This document shows positions 5,211 to 64,000 of a stretch of 64,000 bases of DNA, piece after piece. Location of the stretch: sequence record PX246731.1; one strand, given 5' to 3'. The notes beneath the pieces were generated by a model, which saw only the letters and a program-made list of their open reading frames with translations, made no database searches and was not told where the DNA came from. Every line of letters starts with the position of its first letter. Positions within the stretch are counted from its first letter, which is position 1. The translations under genes and the position numbers were made by a program. Source of the DNA: a phage.

Positions 5211-6029
5211 ATGTACTCATCTATTGAACATCAGAAGCAACTCGAAAAACTATTCAATAAAAATCAGCTCTTGCCTCGTATGAGGAAGGAATTCGAGGAC
5301 TCCAAAGAAATTGACTTTAAGGCATTCGCTGCCTATTTAGAAATTGATTATAAGCTGCTCATTGATGCAATGGTGCAGATTGCCCTACATAAACGTGCTG
5401 ACATTCAGACTATGATTGGCTCTCTCATGAGTCACTCAGATGATGCTCAGTATATCGCTGACTGTCTGTATAAGATGGCAGAGAATGACTGCTTCAACTA
5501 TGACCCTACCATCGACAAGTTCGGTGTTATTTATGAGATTAGTGAAGATGTACAGATGGAACTGGAAGCATTCCAGTATCCATTACCTATCGTAAGTGCT
5601 CCTAAACCTGTTAAGTGTAACCGTGATACTGGTTACTACGAGAGCAGAGGTAGCATCATCCTCAAGAAGAACCATCATGAGATGGATGTCTGTCTTGACC
5701 ACATCAACCGCATGAATAACCAACGTCTCTGTATTAACTGGGACGTTGCTAACTATGTAAAAGACTCCCGTCCTAACATGGATAAACCCAAAGAGGGTGA
5801 AACCCGTCAGGACTATGAGAAACGTGTCAAAGCCTTTGAAAAGTACAGCCGTACAGCTAAAGAAGTAATGGAGTTAGTGACCAAAGAAGGTAATAACTTC
5901 TCCTTGGCTCATCGTTACGATAAGAGAGGGCGTACATATGCCTGTGGTTACCACATCAACTATCAGGGAACCAGCTACAACAAAGCTGTACTTGAGTTCG
6001 CTGATAAGGAGTTAGTAAATGAAGACTAA
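5211..6029 (+). CDS. phage RNA polymerase II small subunit (N4 gp15-like, N-terminal half of a T7-like RNAP)
   Basis: 272 aa, close to the N4 gp15 size; paired with the following 405-aa ORF carrying the HDCF motif. Confidence 0.65.
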   Translation: MYSSIEHQKQLEKLFNKNQLLPRMRKEFEDSKEIDFKAFAAYLEIDYKLLIDAMVQIALHKRADIQTMIGSLMSHSDDAQYIADCLYKMAENDCFNYDPTIDKFGVIYEISEDVQMELEAFQYPLPIVSAPKPVKCNRDTGYYESRGSIILKKNHHEMDVCLDHINRMNNQRLCINWDVANYVKDSRPNMDKPKEGETRQDYEKRVKAFEKYSRTAKEVMELVTKEGNNFSLAHRYDKRGRTYACGYHINYQGTSYNKAVLEFADKELVNED

Positions 6030-6180
6030 CATTGGATCCTATGAGCTATGGGTTAATGAAGAGTGTATCTACTCAGGTACATATGTGAAGTGCTTATACT
6101 TTGAGAAGCTTTACAAGCTTCAAAACCCTGAGAGTAAAACCATTATTTATAAACTATCTGCCGACGTAGTAACCGCCTAA
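6019..6180 (+). CDS. small hypothetical protein (53 aa) between the RNAP II subunit genes
   Basis: ATG with AAGGAG RBS 7 nt upstream; open frame read by eye; below ORF-track cutoff. Confidence 0.4.
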   Translation: MKTNIGSYELWVNEECIYSGTYVKCLYFEKLYKLQNPESKTIIYKLSADVVTA

Positions 6181-6236
6181 CTATCCAATAAGCAGGCTCT
6201 CCATAGTGGGGAGCCAAGAAGCAAAAGGAACATAAA

Positions 6237-7454
6237 ATGCAACTGTTAACCGCTAAACAATACCTGAAAGTAGATATTGCGAACTCATATGGCTTAGATA
6301 AAAAGACGTGGGATGAACGTATTGCCTGGTTCGATGAGAACGAAGCTAATCTGCTTAATCTGGTAGATGAGGCTGAAGATTCTGCTCTGTTCTTTGCTGG
6401 TATAAATGCATGGAATGATATGAAAGCTGGTAAGCCTATCGGTTATGCCGTAGCTCTGGATGCTACATCCTCTGGCTTGCAGTTACTGGCCTGTCTGACT
6501 GGTGACCGTTCTGCTGCTGAACTGTGTAATGTAGTTAATTACATGGGAGAGAATGGTAAGCCATTACGTCGTGATGCTTATACAGTTATCTATCACAAGA
6601 TGCTGGACATCCTTGGCGAAGCATCACGTATTAAACGCAGTGACACTAAGCAGGCAGTTATGACTGCATTCTACGGTTCAGAAGCCAAGCCTAAAGAAGT
6701 ATTCGGTGAAGGTATTCGTCTCAAGACTTTTGAGAATGTAATGGAAACTGTTGCTAGTGGTCCTTGGGCACTTAACAAGTTCTTACTGCAATGTGGTAAC
6801 CCGGATGCTAACCGTTACATATGGATACTGCCTGACAACTTCCATGCTGTCATTAAGGTAATGGTTCCAGAAGTACAGACTGTTAACTTCTTAGGTAAGC
6901 CATTCGACATCACTCGTATGGTTCAGGGTACTGAAGAGAAGACCCGTATGCTCTCTGCTAACATCACCCACTCTATTGATGGGATGGTGGTACGTGAGAT
7001 GCTGCGTCGTTGTAATTTCGACCGTGAATTAGTGGAAGCTGTGCGAGAACTCTGCGATGAAGGTCCATCAGAATATGGGGAGATTGCAGGTAACCTGGAG
7101 AAGGTACAGGAGTTGTGGAGCCATTATGAAAAGTCTGGCTTCTTATCCGTATCAATCCTGGACTATCTTGACCCATGTACTATTGCTTATGTAGACCGTC
7201 AGGTAGTAGCAGATATGATTGATACTATGCCTAAGAAGCCATTCCCTATAATGACTGTGCATGACTGCTTCCGTTGTCATCCTAATTACGGTAATGACCT
7301 GCGTCGTCAGTACAATCAGATTCTGTCTGACATCGCTAAGAGTGACTTACTGGGCTTCATCCTGTCTCAGGTATTAGGACAAGAGTTCTCTGCTGGTAAG
7401 CTGGATGACAACCTCTGGCAGGACATTCTTGAAACAGACTATGCATTAAGTTAA
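6237..7454 (+). CDS. phage RNA polymerase II large subunit (N4 gp16-like, T7-like RNAP catalytic half)
   Basis: 405 aa; TVHDCFRCHP resembles T7 RNAP motif C (HDSF). Confidence 0.7.
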   Translation: MQLLTAKQYLKVDIANSYGLDKKTWDERIAWFDENEANLLNLVDEAEDSALFFAGINAWNDMKAGKPIGYAVALDATSSGLQLLACLTGDRSAAELCNVVNYMGENGKPLRRDAYTVIYHKMLDILGEASRIKRSDTKQAVMTAFYGSEAKPKEVFGEGIRLKTFENVMETVASGPWALNKFLLQCGNPDANRYIWILPDNFHAVIKVMVPEVQTVNFLGKPFDITRMVQGTEEKTRMLSANITHSIDGMVVREMLRRCNFDRELVEAVRELCDEGPSEYGEIAGNLEKVQELWSHYEKSGFLSVSILDYLDPCTIAYVDRQVVADMIDTMPKKPFPIMTVHDCFRCHPNYGNDLRRQYNQILSDIAKSDLLGFILSQVLGQEFSAGKLDDNLWQDILETDYALS

Positions 7455-45600: not shown

Positions 45601-47441
45601 AAGCTATCCATAGACATGATGTTGTCATACATCTGGATTGCAGCTTCCATTTGAACGTTAGGGTCTTCGGCAGTATTAACCAAGTCAGCCATCTTCTGAA
45701 TAGCTTCAACACGGTTAGTGGAACCAGAAACAGCTTCACGGATTGCCGGGCTAGCCTGTTCCAGTTCTACTGGGTCAAACTTCATTACCTGAGTTAAGTC
45801 AGCAGCATACTGTGTAGCAGCAGCTTTCTCTTCAGGAGAAATGTCCATTGCATCTACTGCTTCCTGAACAGTTGCCTGTGCCTGTTCTGCCTGAGCAGTA
45901 GCTTCTTGTGCAGCAGCGTTAACCGTAGCATCAGATACAGGGGATGCTTGCTCATTACGCTTAGCAACTTCTTCACCACGCTGAACCAGGATGTTAGTAA
46001 TAGGTGAAGCTACTTTCGCTAATGCTTTACCAGCCAGAGAAGCACCAGCCAGGGTAGTACGTACAGCAGGACCTACGGCAGCACCAGCAGCCTTAACAGT
46101 TGCACCAGGAGCTTGAGCAACTCCAGCACTACCGAAGCCATACAGTGCACCAAGCCCGGTTTGTTCACCCACACCTTTAAGCAAATCACGATTAGCATCT
46201 ACATTACCTTGAATTGCTTTGTTCTGTGCAAACTGACTTGTACCAGACTGGATACCTTCTTCTACAGTCTCACGCAGCATGTTAGAACCAGCTCCAGCCA
46301 GTGAACCTACCTTAAGTGGGTTAAGTTCAAACTTGGATACCAGTGGAGCAGTAAGAGCAGCAACTGGAGCAGTTAAGCCAGCAGCAGTGATACCTGTTTC
46401 AGATGCAGTCTGACGACGTGCTTCTTCAGGAGACAGACCATCTTTAATATGCTGTTGGTATACAGGAGATTTAGCAGCCAGTTCACTGAACGGCATTTCC
46501 ATAATTTCATTAGCAGTCTGCTGGTATGCACCACCAGCTTCCATACCACCAATTGCTATAGCAGGTGCAGCAACACGACCAGTAGCTAATGCAGTACGTG
46601 CAGGACGCGAACCTAATTCAGCAGCTAGGGTAATACCCTTAACAGCTTTATCACCACCTACCATTACTTTACCAAGTGCAGATACACCACGGATAAGTGG
46701 ACCACCAGTAAACAATGAACCAACACCCTCAGCCAGACCATCTGTAGCAGCCATGCCATTAGATAAGGTGTTAGCAACAGAATCATAAGCATCACGACCA
46801 ATTCGAGATAGGGAAGCAACGAGTTCACTTTCTCCTTTATCAATATCTTGCTTATAGAGTTTCTCATTCTCCTGAGCAGATATTACGTTCTGGTTCTGTA
46901 CTACATTACGGCGAGCATTCAGTGCATCAGACTGTAGGTTGTGTACACCTTTATTTAACCAGTCAAGACCGGAAGCAGTGGATGCCCCGGCATTATCATT
47001 GACCAAACCTGTGCCAAGAGCAGCAATGCCCCCAAGGGTATTAGCAACACCAAGACCAACACCAGAAAGGGTATCACCAAGTGCTTCACCATATGTACGA
47101 CTCTTAGTTAAATCACGACGAACAGCATTAGCTGCATTGACACGAGCATTGAGAATGTCCATTCCTTGCTCATTGCCATACTTGTTTATGATTTCAAGAG
47201 GAGAGGCATTAGTAAAATCTGCCTGAATAGAACCTGGGTTAAATGCACCAGCACCTAAGTTACCAGCACGGCCTGCCTGTAATTGGTAGGCGTTCTGTGG
47301 GGTTAATTGGAAAGGGTTTTGCCCTTGTTCAGCTTGTTTCCGAGAGGTTGCAGTAGAGACATCGACTTGCTTAGCAGTAGTGATGCTGTCTGCGAAACCT
47401 GCCAGACGGTCAAATGTTGACATAGCATGATTCCTGTTCAA
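36636..47441 (-). CDS. virion-encapsidated RNA polymerase (vRNAP, N4 gp50-like), 3601 aa
   Basis: Single uninterrupted 10.8-kb ORF, the size class of N4 gp50; sits with RNAP II genes and hairpin promoters. Confidence 0.85.
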   Translation of the reverse strand: MNRNHAMSTFDRLAGFADSITTAKQVDVSTATSRKQAEQGQNPFQLTPQNAYQLQAGRAGNLGAGAFNPGSIQADFTNASPLEIINKYGNEQGMDILNARVNAANAVRRDLTKSRTYGEALGDTLSGVGLGVANTLGGIAALGTGLVNDNAGASTASGLDWLNKGVHNLQSDALNARRNVVQNQNVISAQENEKLYKQDIDKGESELVASLSRIGRDAYDSVANTLSNGMAATDGLAEGVGSLFTGGPLIRGVSALGKVMVGGDKAVKGITLAAELGSRPARTALATGRVAAPAIAIGGMEAGGAYQQTANEIMEMPFSELAAKSPVYQQHIKDGLSPEEARRQTASETGITAAGLTAPVAALTAPLVSKFELNPLKVGSLAGAGSNMLRETVEEGIQSGTSQFAQNKAIQGNVDANRDLLKGVGEQTGLGALYGFGSAGVAQAPGATVKAAGAAVGPAVRTTLAGASLAGKALAKVASPITNILVQRGEEVAKRNEQASPVSDATVNAAAQEATAQAEQAQATVQEAVDAMDISPEEKAAATQYAADLTQVMKFDPVELEQASPAIREAVSGSTNRVEAIQKMADLVNTAEDPNVQMEAAIQMYDNIMSMDSFINRDPGALANLEQGSPAANIVDQFSGLMANVQNTPKVLRAFRAIHSMIQEQAEAGKLKATEKANQAQANNIAMAADMSPEVLDADSVNMVLKHASEGKITLGNRQRAALQSAAALLQGAREFDAKAEELGLRPQDIVSKQIKTDESRSNEGQYSALQHAKRIRSAYNSGNFDLASAYLDDFMKFAQHMQNKVGALNEHLISGNADKNKSVHYQALTPSREWVRSRTGLGVNPYDTKSVKFAQQVGLEAKTVADIANALATAYPELNVSHVKVTPLDSRLDKPAAQVVKEFRQGNLDAAQSQQTNEPVNQVDEAPVIKQEPVTPTVQTKPSVSEAVKTEPTIKESKPQTVKEPENQSEKQDIVEQPTESERDSYVKENTISQDTLNKYGDRRDSPWLFADGTVVGSNGDHISLSDVFGHDGYRDMSLDTGAVRSTFYKGSEQPFVSLQLFDNQKLTAEQFNTVQSFVEANNALIQIGVDTSGLNTNNVEKEEVSLAQLKADYTVGGKPLSGMEAVFPVYNNEKTPNQFLKAFSLPEEPKSRTIGSESPLTDVKKALSSAARFEAFTQKENNALTSDVIKRYQDLFEFGETLKTTLSDRLAKFLANKNVGKRFAEGTEANRWVGGKLLNIVEKDGDTFKFNDQLLETAVLAGLQWRLTATQNAAIKDMQDVAAITGVNASLLPEGILAEFENAQTLVEATNSLAQKIESYWGLNRNADAPLGYTKGIPMAMATEILSSLIEMGEVKESMLDVSEIDPESNKTIGLYTIEKLDDTDAINKFPTAIEEAVLVEPVEKLYFGDDIPPVAHTQLRNPAVRNTPEQKAALKAEQATEFFVHTPMVQFYEALGKDRILELMGAGTLDKDLLNKNHAKSLEGKNRSVEDSYNQLFSVIEQVRAQSEDISSVPIHYAYNMTRVGRMQMLGKYNPQSAKLVREAILPTKATLDLSNQNNEDFSGFQLGLAQALGIKVHKMTRETMSEELTKALEGKLKPAVDMMVEFDKSGYLPTDAVNILTTSLGNDKSFVALMALMEYARYLNSDDRANFNTPLYVEADGVTNGPINAMVLMTGGKFTPNWIKNTAKGGLFFGKAGKTMNEHHTQEDSVDLYEASTNSLQFYLNELRNAYSKNIPVINQMDHLQKLMDLFIKDFNLNEDGTLDLKRGIAKNPLTITIYGSGARGIAGKMVSAITDTIYERLSDVLKARAVDPNISPAMAMFGKEAASEADAQAMLDTFLTSMKALTGNIPAKRKGKLFIKEVDGVLTGKLDPQEFTVSGDALKNLQENMLHFFVEPMRQGIRFTVGDGLMQSTENLQKATQIQSLVLQDMFQQAVQAKLAEKEKDPTWKKGDFLTQKELNEIQNSLAPLAPMIETGSQTFYIAGSENTDVANQVLATNLDDRMRVPMSIYAPSQAGVAGIPFMTIGTGDGMMMQTLSTMKGAPKNTLKIFDGMNIGINDITDASRKANEAVYTSWQGNPIKNVYESFSKFVKNVDLNKLSDSAIDAIAKSALDFEQRTHIARVDGDRDYKISMIKDSGIALIERNLRNIALGVDIRHKVMDQVQVTVDQMAAVGAPYVNNGKISLEGLTVDQQVAKLNELFDAELNKRRDAVRAAKAEPVKEVPAMEQVGRVLKSGVRLLSNTAITKLAKEMSPEQQEVLKEIQKSLAAKDYKVVYGTPSQLDAYAIEKNITRPAPEDIEAAEAGNAYGWTNFEDKTIYLVTPSLETLVHELVHASTFESVLAHYEGTPNEAVQNIEDLMNQFRALDVNDESPAVREAYADALNTINGHLSNGFIEPAMAKAAALNEYMAWGLTNRELISKQKKTTALKTMVQAVYEAIKRLVFGRKKAPANADDMFSGLLFNSAVVMRGQAPTAAVAKDTTLFHNKAYGDNTRLEELGKTFDKLITNYIGSEPVQQVIRKGKFSDAVVNATKVTRDVQAHGFTMNMQEQRLFTNIVAALATEAAINPAAMARAQEYYTHVTKNLTVEAFMADPDSTNPADRYYAQQKFDTIMGANNIEFDAQGRSSLLPTFVGLAMVSEEVRKVLADIPVMKADKKSGNTVDAMLTNIGTAAMASLNARVAGDTKATNVQEGMDALAQTIMQTSLNAESFYDSVATPTGNAIDRANQYLVDSIDVLSTRALEGAREVAANTKNPLVKGAAHAAQLVAAIATEKNGSIVAEGVMAAMNQGKVWQPFHDLVNDIIGRTKSNASVYDLIKAVRAQVQADRQQFREHLPTTIAAKFSRKLTNDEWKAMHTGMGKTDLAVLRDTMSLDEIRDLLTDQKIVDREVNKLEADLQKQAGRNWPLINRKSKQLAQYMINGTVGNNLLRNATAISRLLGERKTTRSVVDVAQLDKLITLYALEAMNKIDREMLSSLAQTEIEGMDFATSYLVGQRKDEMAKAKSDSRATLNQYKGYIPGETKQGVNLIVAEDSQFADLIEKSYVRLGTYQGSSANRGSARSYYFAPVQAQAPFSQGILQNVRNTAGGVDLGTGFTMGTMVAGRITDKPSVDRITKALARGERGNEPLLPVYDANGNVVAYEQSIDPNMLKHIEGENHLARAIGVWRGRQVEEAKAQRFNDMLIENLHSMYENDIKMSASNKSQYVNLLGSKLDPVTADALKLMNSETRQKAESLFGPGELWVRRDMLNDALGYRAASVGDAWSGNSRWSPETLDTFKKAMLGVFGNRAYKYVMGGENLVQNLVKEAKTLIVVKSVVVPAVNFLANLYQMVARGVPVKNIAKSIPQKTAEINQYLKSRLRQVDAEAELRAATNPNQIRKLKAEIQSISDSHKRLSIWPLLEAGEFSSIADAGIGRDDILITEGKLHEYMDKLADKLPKSVRNAGRYALITKDTALFQGIQKTVEYSDFIAKAIIYDELTQRKGKTREEALGRVTEEFINYDRLPGRFRGYMESVGLMWFYNFKIRSAKVAVSMIRNNPVHAAMAMLAPTPTMFGNVGLPIQDNIFSIAAQGNLGYSFGFGQGLRAHTLNPWLNLTN

Positions 47442-47490: not shown

Positions 47491-47510
47491 AAAGCCCCGG
47501 ATGGGGCTTT
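47491..47510 (-). terminator. hairpin AAAGCCCC-GGAT-GGGGCTTT between virion gene and vRNAP gene
   Basis: 8-bp stem read by eye; downstream of the 47527 stop on the minus strand. Confidence 0.45.
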
Positions 47511-47526
47511 ATTAGTATGTAAGATT

Positions 47527-49473
47527 TTATCGAGGTTGCATATAGGGAGGTAAACCCTCTGCCAATTTTCGATAACGTTTAGCTCGTTCTTCATCTTCAC
47601 GACTACGCTCACGTTCTACTGAAGCATTAGAACGGAAGTTCTGTGGAACCAGGTTTCCTTGGTTAGCCACCACAGTATTAACAGCAGCATCAAGTGCAGC
47701 ACGTGCTCTTGCTAACTCAGCCTCACGAGCAGGAATAGTAGCAGCAAGTCCACTTTGCCCAGCAGCCACACGACGACGAGTATCAGCAAGCAAGGCTTCT
47801 GCTTGTGTTACCTGGTTCTGAGCATTTTCAATATTACCCTGTACCTGAGTAAGAACATTATCACGAGCAGTAGCTTCAATACCTTCTCCACGTCGTACTG
47901 AACGTGCTAGTTCTCTGGCAACGGTATCATCAATACGAATACCATTACCACCCTCGTTAGAAATGAATGGGTTAATAGCATCTAGTGCTCGACTAATCAT
48001 ACCTTCAGGTACGTTGGTAGTAGACTGCTTAAGAATCTCAGCAGCTACAGCAGGAGACTGCCCGGATTCCTGCATAACATCATTAAGTCGAGCTATCATC
48101 CATCCTTTCTCAGAACCTTTGAAAGCATCCTTAAGAAGACGGTCTGCTACTTCACCAATAGTAGAGTTGTCACGCAATGCACGGGCATAGTTAGCAGTAA
48201 TAGTTCCAGTATTATCTTCAGACTGGCGAGCAGCAACTGTATTGCCTGCCATGTTTGAGACTACTTGCTGGGTCTGTAACTGTTCAAGAGGTGCACCTAC
48301 TTCTGCCTGTGCAATTAACTGACGTGCTTCACTCCATGGCATATCCTTATAACCACCAACACCCAAGTCAGGCAATGCAGCCCAAGTCTTAGAAAGGTTA
48401 CCACTCTTACGGTCATTGAAGATTGCTTCAGCTATTTTGTCCTGTACTTCAGGAGTCATTTGCTGATTACGCCAATCTGAACCAAGCACCTTAGGTGCAT
48501 AGTCTTCCAGAGTAGCTTTATTAATCTGAAATGCTCCTACAGGGGAATGACCTTGTGACGGGTTATTAATCATAGTTTGTTGATGATTAGTAACCTCACC
48601 CAGTGTCATTTCAGTAATAGGCTTATCAGTAGCAGCAAAGGTATATGTTGCATCATAAGGAGAACCAGAACGAGTACCAGCAGTTCCCGGAGCAGAGCCA
48701 GAAGGAGACACAGCATAAGTACCCGGGAATCTCTGATTCACACCTCGCATGATTGCAGCACGTACACCAGGAGAAGCATTCTGCATAGCAGACTCTGCCA
48801 GTGTAAGAGCATCCATAGGTGTAGAAGCACTACGGAAAATGTCTGTCAATATACCGGATGCAGCTTGTGAATCAGCATCATTACGTTGAGCCACACCCAA
48901 ATCAAAACGGTTCTGTGCTTGGTTAATAGCCTGACCACCTTGCCCTTGAAGACGACTCAGCATATCCAGTTGTTGATCAGCAGGGAGTGTAGACAGTGAC
49001 TCTCGGGTTTGTCCCAATGCAGAATTAATACGGTTCTGGTCACCGGACTGATAAGCCTCAGACAGCAATCGAATAGCTGGAGAAGCATTATCCAGTGCAG
49101 AGTTAACATCCTTTAAGCGACCAAAGTTATAAGCATTGAAGTCATTGATTCCCTGTTGACCTTGCTGAGTCAGAAGTGTACCTGCTCGCTCATCCAGATT
49201 CTGAAGGGTATGTTGGTTTACCAATGAAGGGTCAACCCCCTGAAACAGTGCACCAGATGCCAGAGCATTACGATACTCAGTAGGGTCTTGATACTGCATA
49301 GCATTCATCATGACGGCATTGCCAGCCTCCTGCTTGGCAGCGTTCTGGAAGTTACCCAGTGCATCACTTAAGCCGGAGGTGGCGTTACCAATCATGCTTC
49401 CAAATGTGCGAATGCTGTCACCAACTCCGGAGAAGTTAGGTGCATCAACATTACGCCATGTAATTTGAGCCAT
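47527..49473 (-). CDS. virion protein with possible lytic transglycosylase-like segment (648 aa)
   Basis: SPVGAFQINKATLEDY resembles the G-x-x-Q SLT motif; position next to vRNAP suggests an ejected internal protein. Confidence 0.45.
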   Translation of the reverse strand: MAQITWRNVDAPNFSGVGDSIRTFGSMIGNATSGLSDALGNFQNAAKQEAGNAVMMNAMQYQDPTEYRNALASGALFQGVDPSLVNQHTLQNLDERAGTLLTQQGQQGINDFNAYNFGRLKDVNSALDNASPAIRLLSEAYQSGDQNRINSALGQTRESLSTLPADQQLDMLSRLQGQGGQAINQAQNRFDLGVAQRNDADSQAASGILTDIFRSASTPMDALTLAESAMQNASPGVRAAIMRGVNQRFPGTYAVSPSGSAPGTAGTRSGSPYDATYTFAATDKPITEMTLGEVTNHQQTMINNPSQGHSPVGAFQINKATLEDYAPKVLGSDWRNQQMTPEVQDKIAEAIFNDRKSGNLSKTWAALPDLGVGGYKDMPWSEARQLIAQAEVGAPLEQLQTQQVVSNMAGNTVAARQSEDNTGTITANYARALRDNSTIGEVADRLLKDAFKGSEKGWMIARLNDVMQESGQSPAVAAEILKQSTTNVPEGMISRALDAINPFISNEGGNGIRIDDTVARELARSVRRGEGIEATARDNVLTQVQGNIENAQNQVTQAEALLADTRRRVAAGQSGLAATIPAREAELARARAALDAAVNTVVANQGNLVPQNFRSNASVERERSREDEERAKRYRKLAEGLPPYMQPR

Positions 49474-49485
49474 GATGGTTTCCTA

Positions 49486-49929
49486 TTAACGAGTTAGCTT
49501 ATTAGCTGCAATGTAAGCATCAGCTGAAGACTGGTCACGGTTCTCTGCTGTAGCACGACTACGAGCACGGTCTTCTAGTGCAGTGTTATAAGACTTAATC
49601 TGGTTATTCAGGTTAGTGTTAGTAACACTCTTAGCAAAGTTCAACTGGTCTTTGGCTAACTTATTAGCCTGGAAACCACTGTAGATATTAGCTAATGAAC
49701 CAAGTGCACCAAGCCCTAACTGAAAGGTAGGTACGTTTAGGCCCAACTGATTAGCTGAACCAGACATGAAAGAAGTAGGGGAAGATGCCCCTAAACTCGT
49801 ACCCATACCAATAGCTGCACCAGGGTTATAGTTCATAGCCGGGGTATTAAAGTTCTGATTGTTATTAGACATCCAAGACATAGCAGCTGGCTGTGGGGTT
49901 TGGTTGCCTGTTAAGAATGACAAATCCAT
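49486..49929 (-). CDS. virion structural protein (147 aa)
   Basis: ORF in late operon; Gly/Ser/Asn-rich. Confidence 0.5.
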   Translation of the reverse strand: MDLSFLTGNQTPQPAAMSWMSNNNQNFNTPAMNYNPGAAIGMGTSLGASSPTSFMSGSANQLGLNVPTFQLGLGALGSLANIYSGFQANKLAKDQLNFAKSVTNTNLNNQIKSYNTALEDRARSRATAENRDQSSADAYIAANKLTR

Positions 49930-49942
49930 GGGGATTCTCCTG

Positions 49943-52597
49943 TTAAACTAGGTCAGTATTAAGGGTCATGTCAGAGTAGTTGCCAATCATGTCTAGAGAC
50001 AAGTCAGCTATATCTGAACCAGTCATAAGAGTACGTGATAAGAATGAATCCAGTGACTCCATTGACACGAATTGCATTGGGTCAATTACACCCTGCCCAG
50101 CAGTACCAAACATTTCTTCATACTGCTTATTGATTGCCATCATATCAGTATTGTACTGCTGCATTACTTTCTCTGCTTTCTGAATAGTAGCAGCCGTAGA
50201 TGCATTAATATACTGACTAATACCATTACCTACCGAACTGGTAAGCTGCATGATGTTTTGGGCATTCATCATCTCACCTGCTAGGGTGGATAAGGATGTA
50301 CCAGTAGACAAAGCAGTACCAACATTCATAGCTACCAATGAAGCAATAGCAGCAATGATAAAACCTAGCTTATCTCCGAACAGTGCAGTGGATACTTTTG
50401 TAGTAATGGATATCAGAATCATTGCAGCAATAGCATTTGCTACAGCACCAACTATTACAGCAGCTAATCCAACAAAACCAAGAGAAGCACCAACTGCACC
50501 ATATGCTCCAAGTATACCTGCACCACCAGCACCCATAGTGAATACGGATACAACGACAGCAACTACAACAACCACAATCTTAAAAGCAGATGTTTGATAC
50601 CACTTCTGCTTAACCTTCTTATATGAGTTCATCACTAAGTAGGAACAGGCAGTGGATAACTGAGTACTTCGAACCAGTGACATTGAACGGTAGATGTTAG
50701 TATGTAGTGGAATAATGAATCCACTCTCCTCTGCATCACCCATTGCTTCGGCAACATCAATGTGCACTGACTTATTCTTATATACCCTGTTATTGTGGTT
50801 TAGACCCAGTACCCTGAGTTTACGGTAAGTGTTATTACCATCCTGCCAAAGCAACTCATACTCCTGCATCGAATAGAATGTATATGTTACTTCAAGTTTC
50901 TTAGCAGAACCGGAGTTAGAAGCTGTCCTTATGTTCTTGCGAGTAAGAGTTATATCTCCTGCATACCTGGCTCGAAGTTGTCCTTGCTTAGCACCAGACC
51001 ATGCTTGTCCTGAGTGAGTAGTTTCGGATACATAGTTCCAGCCAATAGTCATGTCATATTTGTAATGCTTATTACTATGTACCCTAAACTCTCGCTTAGG
51101 TATGACTGGATATTCTGGAAGTGGCGGGGGAGTTCCAATAGTATGCCCTTCAGTCCTGTTCCACCATTCTACATATGCATCAACTGCATCATTAGCTGCC
51201 CGATAACCTGCAATTACTGCTTCCAAAGTTGGGTAGGTTGGGTCAGGTGGGAATGCTTCAGTAGCCATCTGAAAGAAACGGTAGATGTATTCCTTAGCAG
51301 TATCCTCTGGAGTATTAAGAGATACACCGAATGTGCCATAAATGTACTGAATATCACCAATATCCTTATTCTTCTTAAGTTCTGTCACTACCTTATCAAT
51401 TTTTCCACCAGTAGCTTTATAAAGAGCCTTTTTACAGTGAGGGTAGATTGAGTCATTCTCTACCCATTGCTTGTCATTCCTGATTGGAATGAATGGATAG
51501 AATCGGTTATCAGTAGCCTCAGTTTCAAACAGTGAATCTAGTGCAACGTTACCAGAGTTCTGCTTATAGATAAGCATCTTAGGTGTACCAACAGCAGTCA
51601 TCTCAGTATCAGTACGAGTAGTCTGAGATGAGTACTTACGAACCAATGTCTCTGTGGTTGTAGTAATTGTATCAGTACGAGTAACTCCACCACCTATATC
51701 AACTACATTGGTAGTTACATTAGTACTGGATTGAACCTCACCAAACTTTTTATGGGTCATTACCCTGTCAGATACAACTACAGTCACATCATCAGGTTTC
51801 TCAGTGAATCCTCTACGGTAAACCTTAACGTAAGAGTTCCAGTTATCCACACTTGGCTCAGTGACAGTACTATCTTCATCTGGTCTGCCATCAGAGTAAA
51901 CAGAATGAGTATGTATAGTCTTAATAAGGTTGGTTGTATTAGCCGTCGTATCGCTTGAAATGGTAGTCCATAACAAAGTGGAGGGTAAGTCATCCTCATC
52001 ATCATAGACAGTAGTCGGTCCTACTACAGGTGGATTAATAGAAGGGGATTTGTAAAAAGAGTAATCAGCATAGAGATACAAAGCACCTGGTTCAAAGTTA
52101 GTAGGTGTGAATTTAATAGTAGAACCTCCATCCAAGGAGGTCATAGTAATTTCATTGGTATCTTCATCAATGTCGATGTCGAATCGTTCCATGATTCGAC
52201 TTGGAGCATTCTCATAAAGATACTGGTCACACCATTGTTCAAAGTCAGCAAAGCCAATCTCTGCTGCCTGAACGTAGACAGACTCTCCAGCAGGTGGTGT
52301 AATTTGACCCTCTATAACAGTAGGGTCAATCTTAGCCAGTACACCTAATGAAGAACCAGCCATGCCAACTTCTGAATCATAGTGATTCTTACTCCAGCTG
52401 GAGAACAGTCGCATACGAATACCCGGCCCATTCAGATAACTATCAGAGATAGTGTCTGCCATAGTGAATCCTGTATTTGAAACGATATTGCCTATGACTA
52501 CAGTCTTCATATAGTTAGGGCGTTTATGTATATCCCCTGCCATGTTATAGACAGAGGATGCTACGTATACTTTGGTCTTCCCACTGAATAAGCCCAT
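49943..52597 (-). CDS. virion protein with C-terminal membrane-spanning Gly/Ala-rich helices (ejection/channel candidate), 884 aa
   Basis: C-terminal region has three or more hydrophobic segments (VVVVVAVVVSVF, ILGAYGAVGASLGFVGLAAVIVGAV). Confidence 0.5.
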   Translation of the reverse strand: MGLFSGKTKVYVASSVYNMAGDIHKRPNYMKTVVIGNIVSNTGFTMADTISDSYLNGPGIRMRLFSSWSKNHYDSEVGMAGSSLGVLAKIDPTVIEGQITPPAGESVYVQAAEIGFADFEQWCDQYLYENAPSRIMERFDIDIDEDTNEITMTSLDGGSTIKFTPTNFEPGALYLYADYSFYKSPSINPPVVGPTTVYDDEDDLPSTLLWTTISSDTTANTTNLIKTIHTHSVYSDGRPDEDSTVTEPSVDNWNSYVKVYRRGFTEKPDDVTVVVSDRVMTHKKFGEVQSSTNVTTNVVDIGGGVTRTDTITTTTETLVRKYSSQTTRTDTEMTAVGTPKMLIYKQNSGNVALDSLFETEATDNRFYPFIPIRNDKQWVENDSIYPHCKKALYKATGGKIDKVVTELKKNKDIGDIQYIYGTFGVSLNTPEDTAKEYIYRFFQMATEAFPPDPTYPTLEAVIAGYRAANDAVDAYVEWWNRTEGHTIGTPPPLPEYPVIPKREFRVHSNKHYKYDMTIGWNYVSETTHSGQAWSGAKQGQLRARYAGDITLTRKNIRTASNSGSAKKLEVTYTFYSMQEYELLWQDGNNTYRKLRVLGLNHNNRVYKNKSVHIDVAEAMGDAEESGFIIPLHTNIYRSMSLVRSTQLSTACSYLVMNSYKKVKQKWYQTSAFKIVVVVVAVVVSVFTMGAGGAGILGAYGAVGASLGFVGLAAVIVGAVANAIAAMILISITTKVSTALFGDKLGFIIAAIASLVAMNVGTALSTGTSLSTLAGEMMNAQNIMQLTSSVGNGISQYINASTAATIQKAEKVMQQYNTDMMAINKQYEEMFGTAGQGVIDPMQFVSMESLDSFLSRTLMTGSDIADLSLDMIGNYSDMTLNTDLV

Positions 52598-59310: not shown

Positions 59311-59838
59311 TTATTCCTGTTCAAAAAGTTTACGGTCAGCCTGAATCTGCTTACCCAACTCAATTAGTTGGCTGTCACGGAGTCTAACAGTTGCCCGGAG
59401 TTCTTCAACCAAACGTCTGCCTTCTTCAAGACTGTTGTCGAGTCTGGCTGCATGGCTTGCAAGACTTCTGCACTCAAAGGTTCCGGCTTCGGCTTGACGT
59501 TTATATACCGATGCCCGTCTTTCAGACTGTTGCATCCGGCTGTCATAATCACTGCTAACGCGAGCAAGCTCGCTTGCGTAATTACTCTCAGCCGTCTGCA
59601 ACCGGGAAGTGAGTAACCCGACTTCATAACTATGGTTTCTTTGGAGAGCATTGTATTTGTCCTGTAATTTTTGCAGTGCCTTACGGTCTTCAATCTTTTG
59701 GTCATCCCACTTCTTTTGAACAGTAGACTGCCCATTGGAATTACCCCAAAAGTAAATGGTGGCCCCTAGGACCACCACCAGAAGATAAGGCCAACCTTTA
59801 GAGATTAGCATCTTCATTACATGCCTCCAGTGGCACAT
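59311..59838 (-). CDS. i-spanin (Rz-like)
   Basis: N-terminal TM helix ([13 protein letters not shown]) followed by coiled-coil-like periplasmic domain; contains embedded lipoprotein ORF. Confidence 0.65.
59364..59627 (-). CDS. o-spanin (Rz1-like lipoprotein) embedded in the Rz gene in another frame
   Basis: Signal peptide with lipobox-like AVIMTAGC, then Pro-rich KPKPEP; entirely inside 59311-59838; start choice uncertain. Confidence 0.55.
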   Translation of the reverse strand: MKSGYSLPGCRRLRVITQASLLALAVIMTAGCNSLKDGHRYINVKPKPEPLSAEVLQAMQPDSTTVLKKADVWLKNSGQLLDSVTAN

Positions 59839-60433
59839 TGCCTATTCGGTTAGCTACCCAACCATACGTAAAGTCTGGCATGTTTAATGAGGTGTAGTGG
59901 TTCAGTTGTTTGGCATCAAGTAACTTAATCATTACCTGACATGCTGCAACTTTGCCTCGTTTTTTCTGTAATGCTTTATATGCATTAACAGTACTTGTAC
60001 CGACTTTACCATCAACCTGTATTTTAGGGTAGTCTTTGCCATCACGGGACATTTCATTGAGAGATTGCTGTAACCACTTAGCCGGACGGGTTACACCCGT
60101 ATTAACACCAGCATCTACCAGCTTATGTGTTACAGCAGGAGATATATCAGCGAAGGCTACGAAGTTAGGCTTAAGTACGTAGTCATCAATGTATATCTCA
60201 GCAGCCATCTCTTTAGATAAACCTTTCATAGAACCATCCCAACCATACTCAGTAGCCAGAACTTCTTTATGTGTCTTAGCTACAGCTTGGGTAATTCCGT
60301 GGTTAGTTTCCCCACCTGGGTCACGAAGATTGTTTACGTAACCCCCTTCCATATAGAACACTGCCCCCAGGATAGCAGCGATAACTCCTCCCACTGCACC
60401 ACCTTTCGCAGCAAGTTTCTGTTTAGCTTTCAT
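59798..60433 (-). CDS. endolysin, GH108-like N-acetylmuramidase with N-terminal signal-anchor
   Basis: EGGYVNNLRDPGGETNHGIT resembles the GH108 catalytic motif; Gly/Ala-rich N-terminal hydrophobic segment (GGAVGGVIAAILGAVFY). Confidence 0.7.
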   Translation of the reverse strand: MKAKQKLAAKGGAVGGVIAAILGAVFYMEGGYVNNLRDPGGETNHGITQAVAKTHKEVLATEYGWDGSMKGLSKEMAAEIYIDDYVLKPNFVAFADISPAVTHKLVDAGVNTGVTRPAKWLQQSLNEMSRDGKDYPKIQVDGKVGTSTVNAYKALQKKRGKVAACQVMIKLLDAKQLNHYTSLNMPDFTYGWVANRIGNVPLEACNEDANL

Positions 60434-63988: not shown

Positions 63989-64000
63989 GGAGTAGTTAAT

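Follow-up and report, generated by a model that had tools for sequence, protein, structure and literature searches.

A lambda-lysozyme-related domain in the putative tunnel protein of an N4-like coliphage

How does an N4-like phage carry its genome and its virion RNA polymerase (vRNAP) across the host envelope, and does one of its own ejected proteins act on the murein layer on the way? This question is raised by a 5.07-kb region (positions 47,527 to 52,597) of the phage sequence record PX246731.1, of which a stretch of 64,000 nucleotides (nt), hereafter the window, was analysed. An earlier note, made from the sequence alone, had placed an ejection-protein block here beside the vRNAP gene, with a transglycosylase-like virion protein of 648 amino acids (aa) and a membrane-channel candidate of 884 aa. 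Sequence similarity identifies this region as the gp54-gp53-gp52-gp51 block of late genes in an N4-like phage, adjoining the gp50 gene for the vRNAP, and the 648-aa protein as the counterpart of N4 gp51. We consider it rather probable that the proteins of this block have the roles of their N4 counterparts and that the tunnel protein, gp51, carries a domain derived from lambda lysozyme that engages the murein, most likely cutting it by means of Glu391.

The GAFQINKAT motif of the 648-aa protein had been read as SLT-like (soluble lytic transglycosylase), suggesting a virion peptidoglycan hydrolase. A lysozyme-superfamily domain centred on this motif is indeed predicted; however, it resembles glycoside hydrolase family 104 (GH104) rather than SLT, and it lacks the canonical catalytic Glu. 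When residues 268–400 were searched exhaustively with phmmer (E ≤ 1e-3), 498 clusters were retrieved, one cluster being the proteins grouped at 50% identity; the domain is found in at least that many protein clusters and in at least 140 sequenced phages. Most of these clusters are proteins of 550–800 aa with the domain at about residues 260–420, and some are stand-alone proteins of about 250 aa. Shorter queries, which seem biased towards proteins of similar length, returned one match (the 132-aa domain alone) and 12 short proteins (the domain alignment). Residues G313, Q316, T321, Q344 and E391 are invariant in the 150 listed cluster representatives that served as the conservation set, G331 is found in 146 and W364 in 149 of them (both are invariant in the 35-sequence subset A1), and G308, W334, L360, L367 (≥90%) and W380 are near-invariant. 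Conservation of this kind indicates that GAFQINKAT is under strong selection and is not a chance match.

The affiliation of the domain was addressed by profile comparison. The GH104 alignment was drawn from tblastn matches and contains lambda R, P2 K, endolysins of Ralstonia and Pantoea phages and, from gp57 of Pectobacterium phage ZF40, its lysozyme domain; the viral-contig relatives of lambda R were all 99–100% identical and unusable for a profile. With hhalign, the gp51-domain alignment matched this family with a probability of 96.3% (E 1.5e-9) over 106 columns, covering lambda R residues 28–146, with a score of 61.7 compared with 8–17 for the controls (the reversed family alignment and 20 column-shuffled ones). 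A bridge between the two families is P0278, a 240-aa Aestuariivita lipoprotein, which the domain profile retrieved from among 5.8 billion sequences (E 1e-8) and which in turn matches lambda R at E 9e-12 over the whole catalytic part, the catalytic SE19GT motif included. With P0278 added, the hhalign probability rose to 97.6% (E 2.6e-12). The groove residues G313/Q316, Q344, W364 and L367 are paired with G65/Q68, Q91, W124 and L127 of lambda R, and the domain retains the lambda-type sugar-groove motifs GxYQ, QD and W-A-x-L-P. An AlphaFold2 (AF2) model of residues 262–405 has a mean predicted local distance difference test score (pLDDT) of 84 and a predicted TM score (pTM) of 0.80. Foldseek returned nothing significant for this model against the PDB; among predicted viral structures outside the gp51 family it matched the gp5/Vgr-type hub of Agrobacterium phage Atu_ph07, the baseplate hub of phiM12 and a signal-arrest-release (SAR) endolysin transglycosylase. 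The Atu_ph07 protein, annotated as 'baseplate hub subunit and tail lysozyme', was also found by tblastn with the domain (E 5e-6). Taken as a matter of sequence descent, the domain comes from a lambda-type lysozyme (GH104 lytic transglycosylase) and not from SLT (GH23).

If the domain were a classical GH23 lytic transglycosylase, with E293 serving in catalysis ahead of a GLMQ-like motif, this would explain why G-A-F-Q-I-x-x-x-T resembles SLT motif II and is preceded in this protein, at a distance of 20 positions, by an acidic residue, and a Pfam scan of 35 diverse members gave sub-threshold SLT or Rpf-like (lysozyme-clan) matches in three (E ~0.01). However, the 648-aa protein itself has no Pfam SLT match (PF01464), and the best of the 35 members, at E 0.013, stays below threshold. 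Comparison of the domain with a true SLT protein, P7 of PRD1, yielded an hhalign score of 15.0 (E 0.18), which falls inside the 8–17 range of the shuffled controls and is noise against the 62–78 obtained for the lambda-lysozyme family. Of the 150 representatives, 86 have E in the E293 column, 36 have D, 20 have Q and 3 have G; the domain contains no AYNxG motif, and relatives that retain the 'TEGT' Glu carry an E293-type residue as well, so that E293 does not stand in for that Glu. We therefore regard a GH23 enzyme as highly improbable. Of the SLT and lysozyme folds for which the earlier note suggested a check, sequence comparison supports a relationship to lambda lysozyme (96–98% probability by hhalign), whereas the SLT side fails both in Pfam and against P7. 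PRD1 P7 and the Jorvik Slt protein were also considered as validated relatives of the domain and rejected, since they are classical SLT proteins with no sequence relationship to it.

The protein that carries the domain can be placed with the help of the recent work on N4, in which gp51, gp52 and gp53 all have PDB entries (11mn, 9yf4 and 9yft; Bellis et al., Nat Commun 2026, PMC13434306). The 648-aa protein matches, over residues 1–358, chain 11mn_A, which comprises residues 1–359 of N4 gp51 ('66 kDa protein'); the domain query matches the N4 '66 kDa protein' by tblastn, and PHROG 6126, 'virion structural protein', covers the 648-aa protein end to end. Its gene is flanked by those for the gp52 homologue and the vRNAP, all three in one orientation, an order also seen in St11Ph5 and phiEaP8. 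N4 gp51 is found around the portal in full virions and is gone after ejection, and recombinant gp51(1–359) forms a decameric tube like that of T7 gp15 (PMC13434306). The 648-aa protein is the N4 gp51 orthologue, and we infer from this orthology that it is likewise packaged, ejected and assembled into a decameric channel. The full-length AF2 monomer is mostly helical with a pLDDT of 58, a low confidence that is expected for an oligomeric tube protein. Helices at aa 33–248, which is the part seen in the structure of the N4 decamer, are followed in the model by a linker without order at 249–285, a compact domain at 286–392 and helices at 396–638. The hydrophobic C-terminus reported for N4 gp51 was not reproduced in a Kyte-Doolittle scan of the 648-aa protein, in which no segment exceeded 1.0.

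The gp51-type domain departs from its canonical relatives in the catalytic residues. In lambda R, E19 is the canonical catalytic acid. Lambda R (PDB 1am7, Glu19 in 'SEGT'), P2 K, P0278, P0279 and the Atu_ph07 hub all have an N-terminal helix ending in (S/T/A)-E-G-T, whereas the gp51 family lacks this helix and has a Gly/Ser/Pro-rich linker in its place. In alignment A2, the gp51-family 'PGTAGTR' stands opposite 'LTEGTDK' of P0278 and 'AAEGTAR' of P0279, with Ala265 at the position of the canonical Glu, and the stand-alone domain proteins begin right there ('MSWGTK', 'MSWGTKQG..YD'). Compared with lambda R, the gp51-type domain has an extra 'PLTxMTxGE' helix, a deletion of about 14 residues and an invariant Glu after the last helix. 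This residue, E391, is the one acidic position of the domain that never varies, which makes it a candidate for a relocated catalytic residue. It lies just past the last helix in the context 'I-x-x-x-E-[S/V/T/G]-[G/T]' and is kept in phiEaP8 as 'RESG' at 29% identity; the canonical enzymes have no Glu in this column (Lys in P0278, other residues in lambda R and the Atu_ph07 hub). When the last helix was moved in front in a circular-permutation test, hhalign paired E391 with lambda E19. Mean-field direct-coupling analysis of the 150 sequences was dominated by gap artefacts, with a weak 390–366 coupling, and was not used.

Two other acidic residues were considered and rejected. E293 is unconserved, and Atu_ph07 and P0278 possess it alongside the canonical Glu. 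E227, about 40 residues upstream of the domain, lies in 'LTLAES' in the 648-aa protein, and its helix was examined as a displaced catalytic helix; Glu is found there in 39 of 140 family members. The corresponding N4 gp51 sequence, 'ARMLAEGTFDQ', resembles the catalytic helix 'LDMLAWSEGTD' of lambda lysozyme, a likeness that is probably coincidence or a relic, given how few members keep the Glu.

The domain is also found outside N4-like phages. P0150, a protein of 261 aa, consists of a stand-alone gp51-type domain and a C-terminal hydrophobic (membrane) helix and is encoded on two metagenomic contigs of about 10–16 kb (L087, 8001–8786; L088, 7551–8336). These contigs are PRD1-like (tectivirus-like), with a P3-type double-jelly-roll capsid protein and a PRD1_DD protein, and P0150 directly follows a spike-like gene and precedes a 122-aa gene and an M15 peptidase. 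The comparable slot in PRD1 is occupied by the membrane-associated entry transglycosylase P7 (265 aa), and it looks as if one entry muralytic module has been replaced by another. Such a replacement agrees with Hardies et al., in whose view tail-lysozyme domains are carried by differing internal virion proteins among podoviruses (PMC4819975).

Does the domain cut murein, or does it only bind it? That the groove residues and one Glu never vary speaks for a function, whereas the loss of the catalytic helix points to a domain that only binds or is altered in some other way. Several points weigh against an active enzyme. The Ala265 column is acidic in only 2 of the 150 sequences, and no conserved acid lies within the 70 residues upstream of it; the gain from circular permutation was +2.6 score units, a value reached by 4 of 40 column shuffles. 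In the recombinant N4 gp51(1–359), residues past 255 are disordered, and the N4 study states that peptidoglycan hydrolysis is required but that no ejection protein seems to supply it (PMC13434306). Our literature search found no biochemical data on any member with a gp51-type domain. It is conceivable, if unlikely, that the domain is a catalytically dead relic that binds peptidoglycan and positions or anchors the tunnel while host autolysins or another virion factor do the cutting. The family-wide loss of the catalytic helix and Glu with retention of the groove residues would be explained in this way, as would the variation of E293 between E, D, Q and G, and Bellis et al., who saw no sign of a hydrolase in the ejection proteins, propose that the hydrolase is supplied in trans (PMC13434306). 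However, a Glu kept in every representative and at such low identity would be unusual for a pure binding module, and the stand-alone copy occupies the entry-transglycosylase slot of PRD1-like phages. We tentatively propose, as a possibility short of an even chance, that the gp51-type domain is an active murein cleaver that uses the relocated E391 and has given up the catalytic helix shared by all lysozyme-like folds, that it is the 'missing' hydrolase of the N4 ejectosome and that it serves as an entry enzyme in some PRD1-like membrane phages too. Such activity could reflect a natural quasi-circular permutation, or the active site could be completed only upon oligomerization of the tunnel.

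Murein-active domains on ejected or entry proteins are also known from T7 gp16 (an N-terminal SLT domain), phiKMV gp36 (a C-terminal lysozyme) and PRD1 P7 (PMC4819975). However, these belong to other lysozyme families (GH23 or others), and, in contrast to T7, the domain described here resides in the gp15-like tunnel protein and not in a gp16-like protein. Lambda R is a soluble endolysin, whereas the gp51-type domain forms part of a much larger structural protein, of 648 aa, that is ejected in N4. The closest canonical relatives are the Atu_ph07 hub (gp699), a virion-associated tail lysozyme that serves wall penetration, and P0278; like the gp51-type domain, they have the 'LTxMTLxEI' insert as well as the motifs of the groove. 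Both retain the 'LDLIGxTEGTD' catalytic helix and have no Glu at the E391 position, while the gp51-type domain shows the reverse. P0278 is encoded at 6001–6723 of an Aestuariivita sp. contig (L089, JAAWWD010000003.1) near genes for a phage-type integrase, a TraG/TrwB-like protein and a helix-turn-helix protein, probably on an integrated mobile element. ZF40 gp57, a 586-aa 'tail-fiber/lysozyme' protein encoded upstream of baseplate genes (L083, 1879–3639), combines Gly-rich hydrophobic segments with a lambda-lysozyme domain that is complete (AEGT) and lies near its C-terminal part, so that the family is again found riding on a virion protein.

Within the Schitoviridae, N4 is among the closest known systems: the proteins are orthologous, have equal order and orientation and can be aligned end to end, and the knot segments of gp53, the C-terminal helix of gp52 and the central domain of gp51 are conserved. 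The Pseudomonas phage DEV (gp72:gp73 complex, PMC11445570; PDB 8vxq and 9ze4) shares the logic of a three-gene ejection operon and has related gp52-like and gp53-like proteins. The DEV paper mentions no lysozyme or transglycosylase (PMC11445570), the domain profile matched no DEV chain in the PDB, and none of the 45 tblastn records listed is a DEV-type (Litunavirus) Pseudomonas phage, which suggests that the domain is not universal in the Schitoviridae. These 45 records annotate the domain-bearing protein as structural, as hypothetical or not at all, with Atu_ph07 as the sole exception. For the N4-like roseophage RPP1, an unspecified 'hydrolase domain (residues 215-310)' has been listed for gp63, whose entry directly precedes that of the gp52 homologue (gp64) in the table of virion proteins (PMC4193335). 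Bellis et al. recognize no lysozyme-like domain in gp51 (PMC13434306), and our literature search found no paper giving N4 gp51 a lysozyme fold. The presence of a lambda-lysozyme-derived domain without the canonical Glu in the tunnel protein of N4, G7C and many schitoviruses is apparently unreported.

Which proteins form the conduit itself? The 884-aa protein, proposed in the earlier note as the channel, aligns over residues 1–883 with N4 'Gp53' (9yft, 1074 bits) and over aa 601–867 with the DEV 'N4 gp53-like protein' (9ze4_M, E 3e-17). N4 gp53 is the plug of the dodecameric tail tube; its bulk lies outside the tube on one gp65 sheath subunit, residues 29–56 and 670–716 form a 'hydrophobic knot' corking the base of the tube, and the plug persists on emptied particles (PMC13434306). 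Both knot segments are near-identical in the 884-aa protein in the printed alignment to 9yft. The Gly/Ala-rich transmembrane helices that had been placed at its end correspond to three to four strongly hydrophobic segments at aa 666–765 with Kyte-Doolittle 19-residue means of 1.8–2.6, which is transmembrane-grade; however, they are not terminal, as about 120 polar residues follow. If the 884-aa protein were ejected and these helices entered the host membrane, they could form a channel for DNA and polymerase, and it is the hydrophobic region and the C-terminal part that are conserved with the DEV protein, while the last 160 residues of N4 gp53 are unresolved in the tail lumen (PMC13434306). We regard this as very unlikely, because the homologous N4 helices form the knot that corks the tail tube, most of gp53 sits on the sheath and is still present on emptied particles, and channel activity in N4 was measured for gp52 and gp51, not for gp53 (PMC13434306). 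By homology, the 884-aa protein is a tail plug and not the conduit channel. In the record of the 98%-identical relative St11Ph5, no gp64 or gp65 is annotated between gp63.1 and gp66 (our window ends at 64000), so that the partner of the N4 plug, domains D9-D10 of gp65, appears to be lacking, in which case another protein would have to serve in gating.

A third protein, of 147 aa, is encoded within the region but was absent from the earlier note. Besides its match to N4 gp52 (Table 1), it has a weak match to the DEV 'N4 gp52-like protein' (8vxq, E 4e-4), its gene is positioned between those of the gp53 and gp51 homologues on the open reading frame (ORF) map, and a moderately hydrophobic segment lies at aa 62–82 (Kyte-Doolittle 1.14). 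In N4 gp52, which is located in the tail lumen, a helix is predicted at residues 72–88, and both gp52 and gp51 have the properties of membrane proteins and make channels when added to planar bilayers (PMC13434306). The 147-aa protein is the gp52 homologue and would be an outer-membrane pore component as in N4, and the pore components of the system would be the 147-aa and 648-aa proteins, not the 884-aa protein. The trans-envelope conduit involving the vRNAP thus retains its place in the scheme, since N4 gp50, gp51 and gp52 are proposed to build one, but with the 884-aa protein as the tail plug.

The N4 model, in which the plug is displaced, gp52 forms an outer-membrane complex, gp51 a periplasmic tunnel and gp50 then follows (PMC13434306), can be transferred to the phage described here. 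The 884-aa protein would close the tail tube, its hydrophobic helices knotted within it, until receptor binding displaces it. The 147-aa protein, held in the tail lumen, would then form the outer-membrane pore, and the 648-aa protein, held around the portal, would come next and build a roughly decameric tunnel spanning the periplasm, through which the vRNAP and the DNA would travel. As the tunnel crosses the periplasm, its lysozyme-like domains would engage the murein layer and most likely open it locally with Glu391 as the acid, as we infer, or at minimum anchor the tunnel.

The assignment of the locus is consistent with its genomic context. The region has 98.4% nucleotide identity and equal gene order to Escherichia phage St11Ph5, and 90–94% nucleotide identity to ECBP1, ZQ2, EC1-UPM and others; judged by these matches, the source phage is a G7C/St11Ph5-like N4-type coliphage (a podophage; Schitoviridae, Enquatrovirinae, Gamaleyavirus). 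The genes of the block are all on the minus strand and closely packed (Table 1), and the region holds three of them where two had been named. The 648-aa and 884-aa ORFs are present exactly as previously given, and the ejection block postulated beside the vRNAP is borne out as an ejection and tail-gating module, the adjoining ORF coinciding with St11Ph5 gp50. The stop codon of the gp54 homologue lies 1 nt from the start of the 884-aa ORF, which is followed by a 13-nt gap, the 147-aa ORF, a 12-nt gap and the 648-aa ORF. The 280-aa gp54 homologue also matches N4 Gp54 (9lc0, E 5e-125) and the DEV tail tube protein gp75 (E 2e-19). In the St11Ph5 record the five genes are labelled gp54, gp53, gp52, gp51 and gp50. 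Pfam gave no match for the 648-, 147- or 884-aa protein, and PHROGs described the three as 'virion structural protein' or of unknown function and nothing more. The mechanically called vRNAP ORF (36636–47441) begins at a TTG at 47441, and an in-frame ATG at 47423 is preceded by AGGAA; the likely start, judging from the sequence, is this ATG (3595 aa), in agreement with the St11Ph5 annotation, and not the TTG (3601 aa).

Table 1. Positions in the 64,000-nt window of the features discussed in the text.
Feature	Position	Strand	Basis or remark
Lambda-lysozyme-like (GH104-like) domain, ~aa 267-392 of the 648-aa protein	48298-48675	minus	Profile-profile match
GAFQINKAT motif, aa 313-321 of the 648-aa protein	48511-48537	minus	Corresponds to 'GRYQLLSRW' of lambda lysozyme
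Glu391 codon	48301-48303	minus	Sole invariant acidic residue of the domain; candidate relocated catalytic residue
Ala265 codon, at the canonical catalytic Glu position (lambda R E19, 'SEGT')	48679-48681	minus	Alignment A2
Glu227 codon	48793-48795	minus	
gp51 homologue, 648 aa	47527-49473	minus	PDB 11mn_A, phmmer E 7.6e-116
gp52 homologue, 147 aa	49486-49929	minus	PDB 9yf4 chain OA, E 2.1e-45
gp53 homologue, tail plug (by homology), 884 aa	49943-52597	minus	PDB 9yft 'Gp53', E 0
Hydrophobic helices rich in Gly, Ala and Val (884-aa protein, aa 666-765)	50303-50602	minus	Kyte-Doolittle; correspond to N4 knot 670-716 and the next helices
gp54 homologue, tail tube, 280 aa	52599-53441	minus	PDB 9d80_C 'Tail protein', E 1e-149; just outside the 5.07-kb region
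Virion RNA polymerase, gp50 homologue, largest ejection protein	36636-47423	minus	Matches St11Ph5 gp50 CDS (coding sequence) coordinates
Intergenic hairpin	47491-47510	minus	
Endolysin, gp61 homologue	59798-60433	minus	GH108 N-acetylmuramidase and PG_binding_3
Tailspike, 854 aa	61378-63942	minus	Tail_spike_N (TSP1/Gp66-type anchor) and Peptidase_S74 chaperone domains

The roughly 100 nt between the 648-aa ORF and the vRNAP ORF hold a strong hairpin, AAAGCCCC-AUCC-GGGGCUUU followed by UCUCUU, which lies between the gp51 stop at 47527 and the gp50 start at 47423. Its folding energy is -13.1 kcal/mol (z = -5.1), and none of 200 shuffles folded equally well; it was not among the hairpins listed by a consensus terminator scan. 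Being terminator-like, the hairpin could keep transcription of the gp54-gp51 block apart from that of the vRNAP gene, or attenuate it between the two.

Elsewhere in the window, a separate endolysin with a GH108 N-acetylmuramidase domain is encoded, and the lysis enzyme of this phage is thus unrelated to the gp51-type domain. The 854-aa tailspike has nucleotide matches in the phage collection that are limited to the N-terminal anchor (~155 aa), and at the tailspike position of St11Ph5 lies gp63.1, a protein of 635 aa. The anchor-only matches and the differing St11Ph5 protein make the receptor-binding body of the tailspike look like a module swap.

The gene block itself is already explained by the work on N4 and DEV, and what the present analysis adds to it is the domain. 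For annotation, two likely errors would be corrected: the 884-aa protein would be named a tail plug and not a channel, and the 147-aa protein an ejection or pore protein. The domain assignment contradicts the statement of the 2026 N4 paper on the ejection proteins (PMC13434306). If it holds, the domain would lie in the middle of the tunnel protein, where the murein layer would be, and would be an obvious candidate for the missing hydrolase of N4; and should it prove active although the helix with the canonical Glu is gone, its catalytic architecture would be an unusual one for the lysozyme superfamily.

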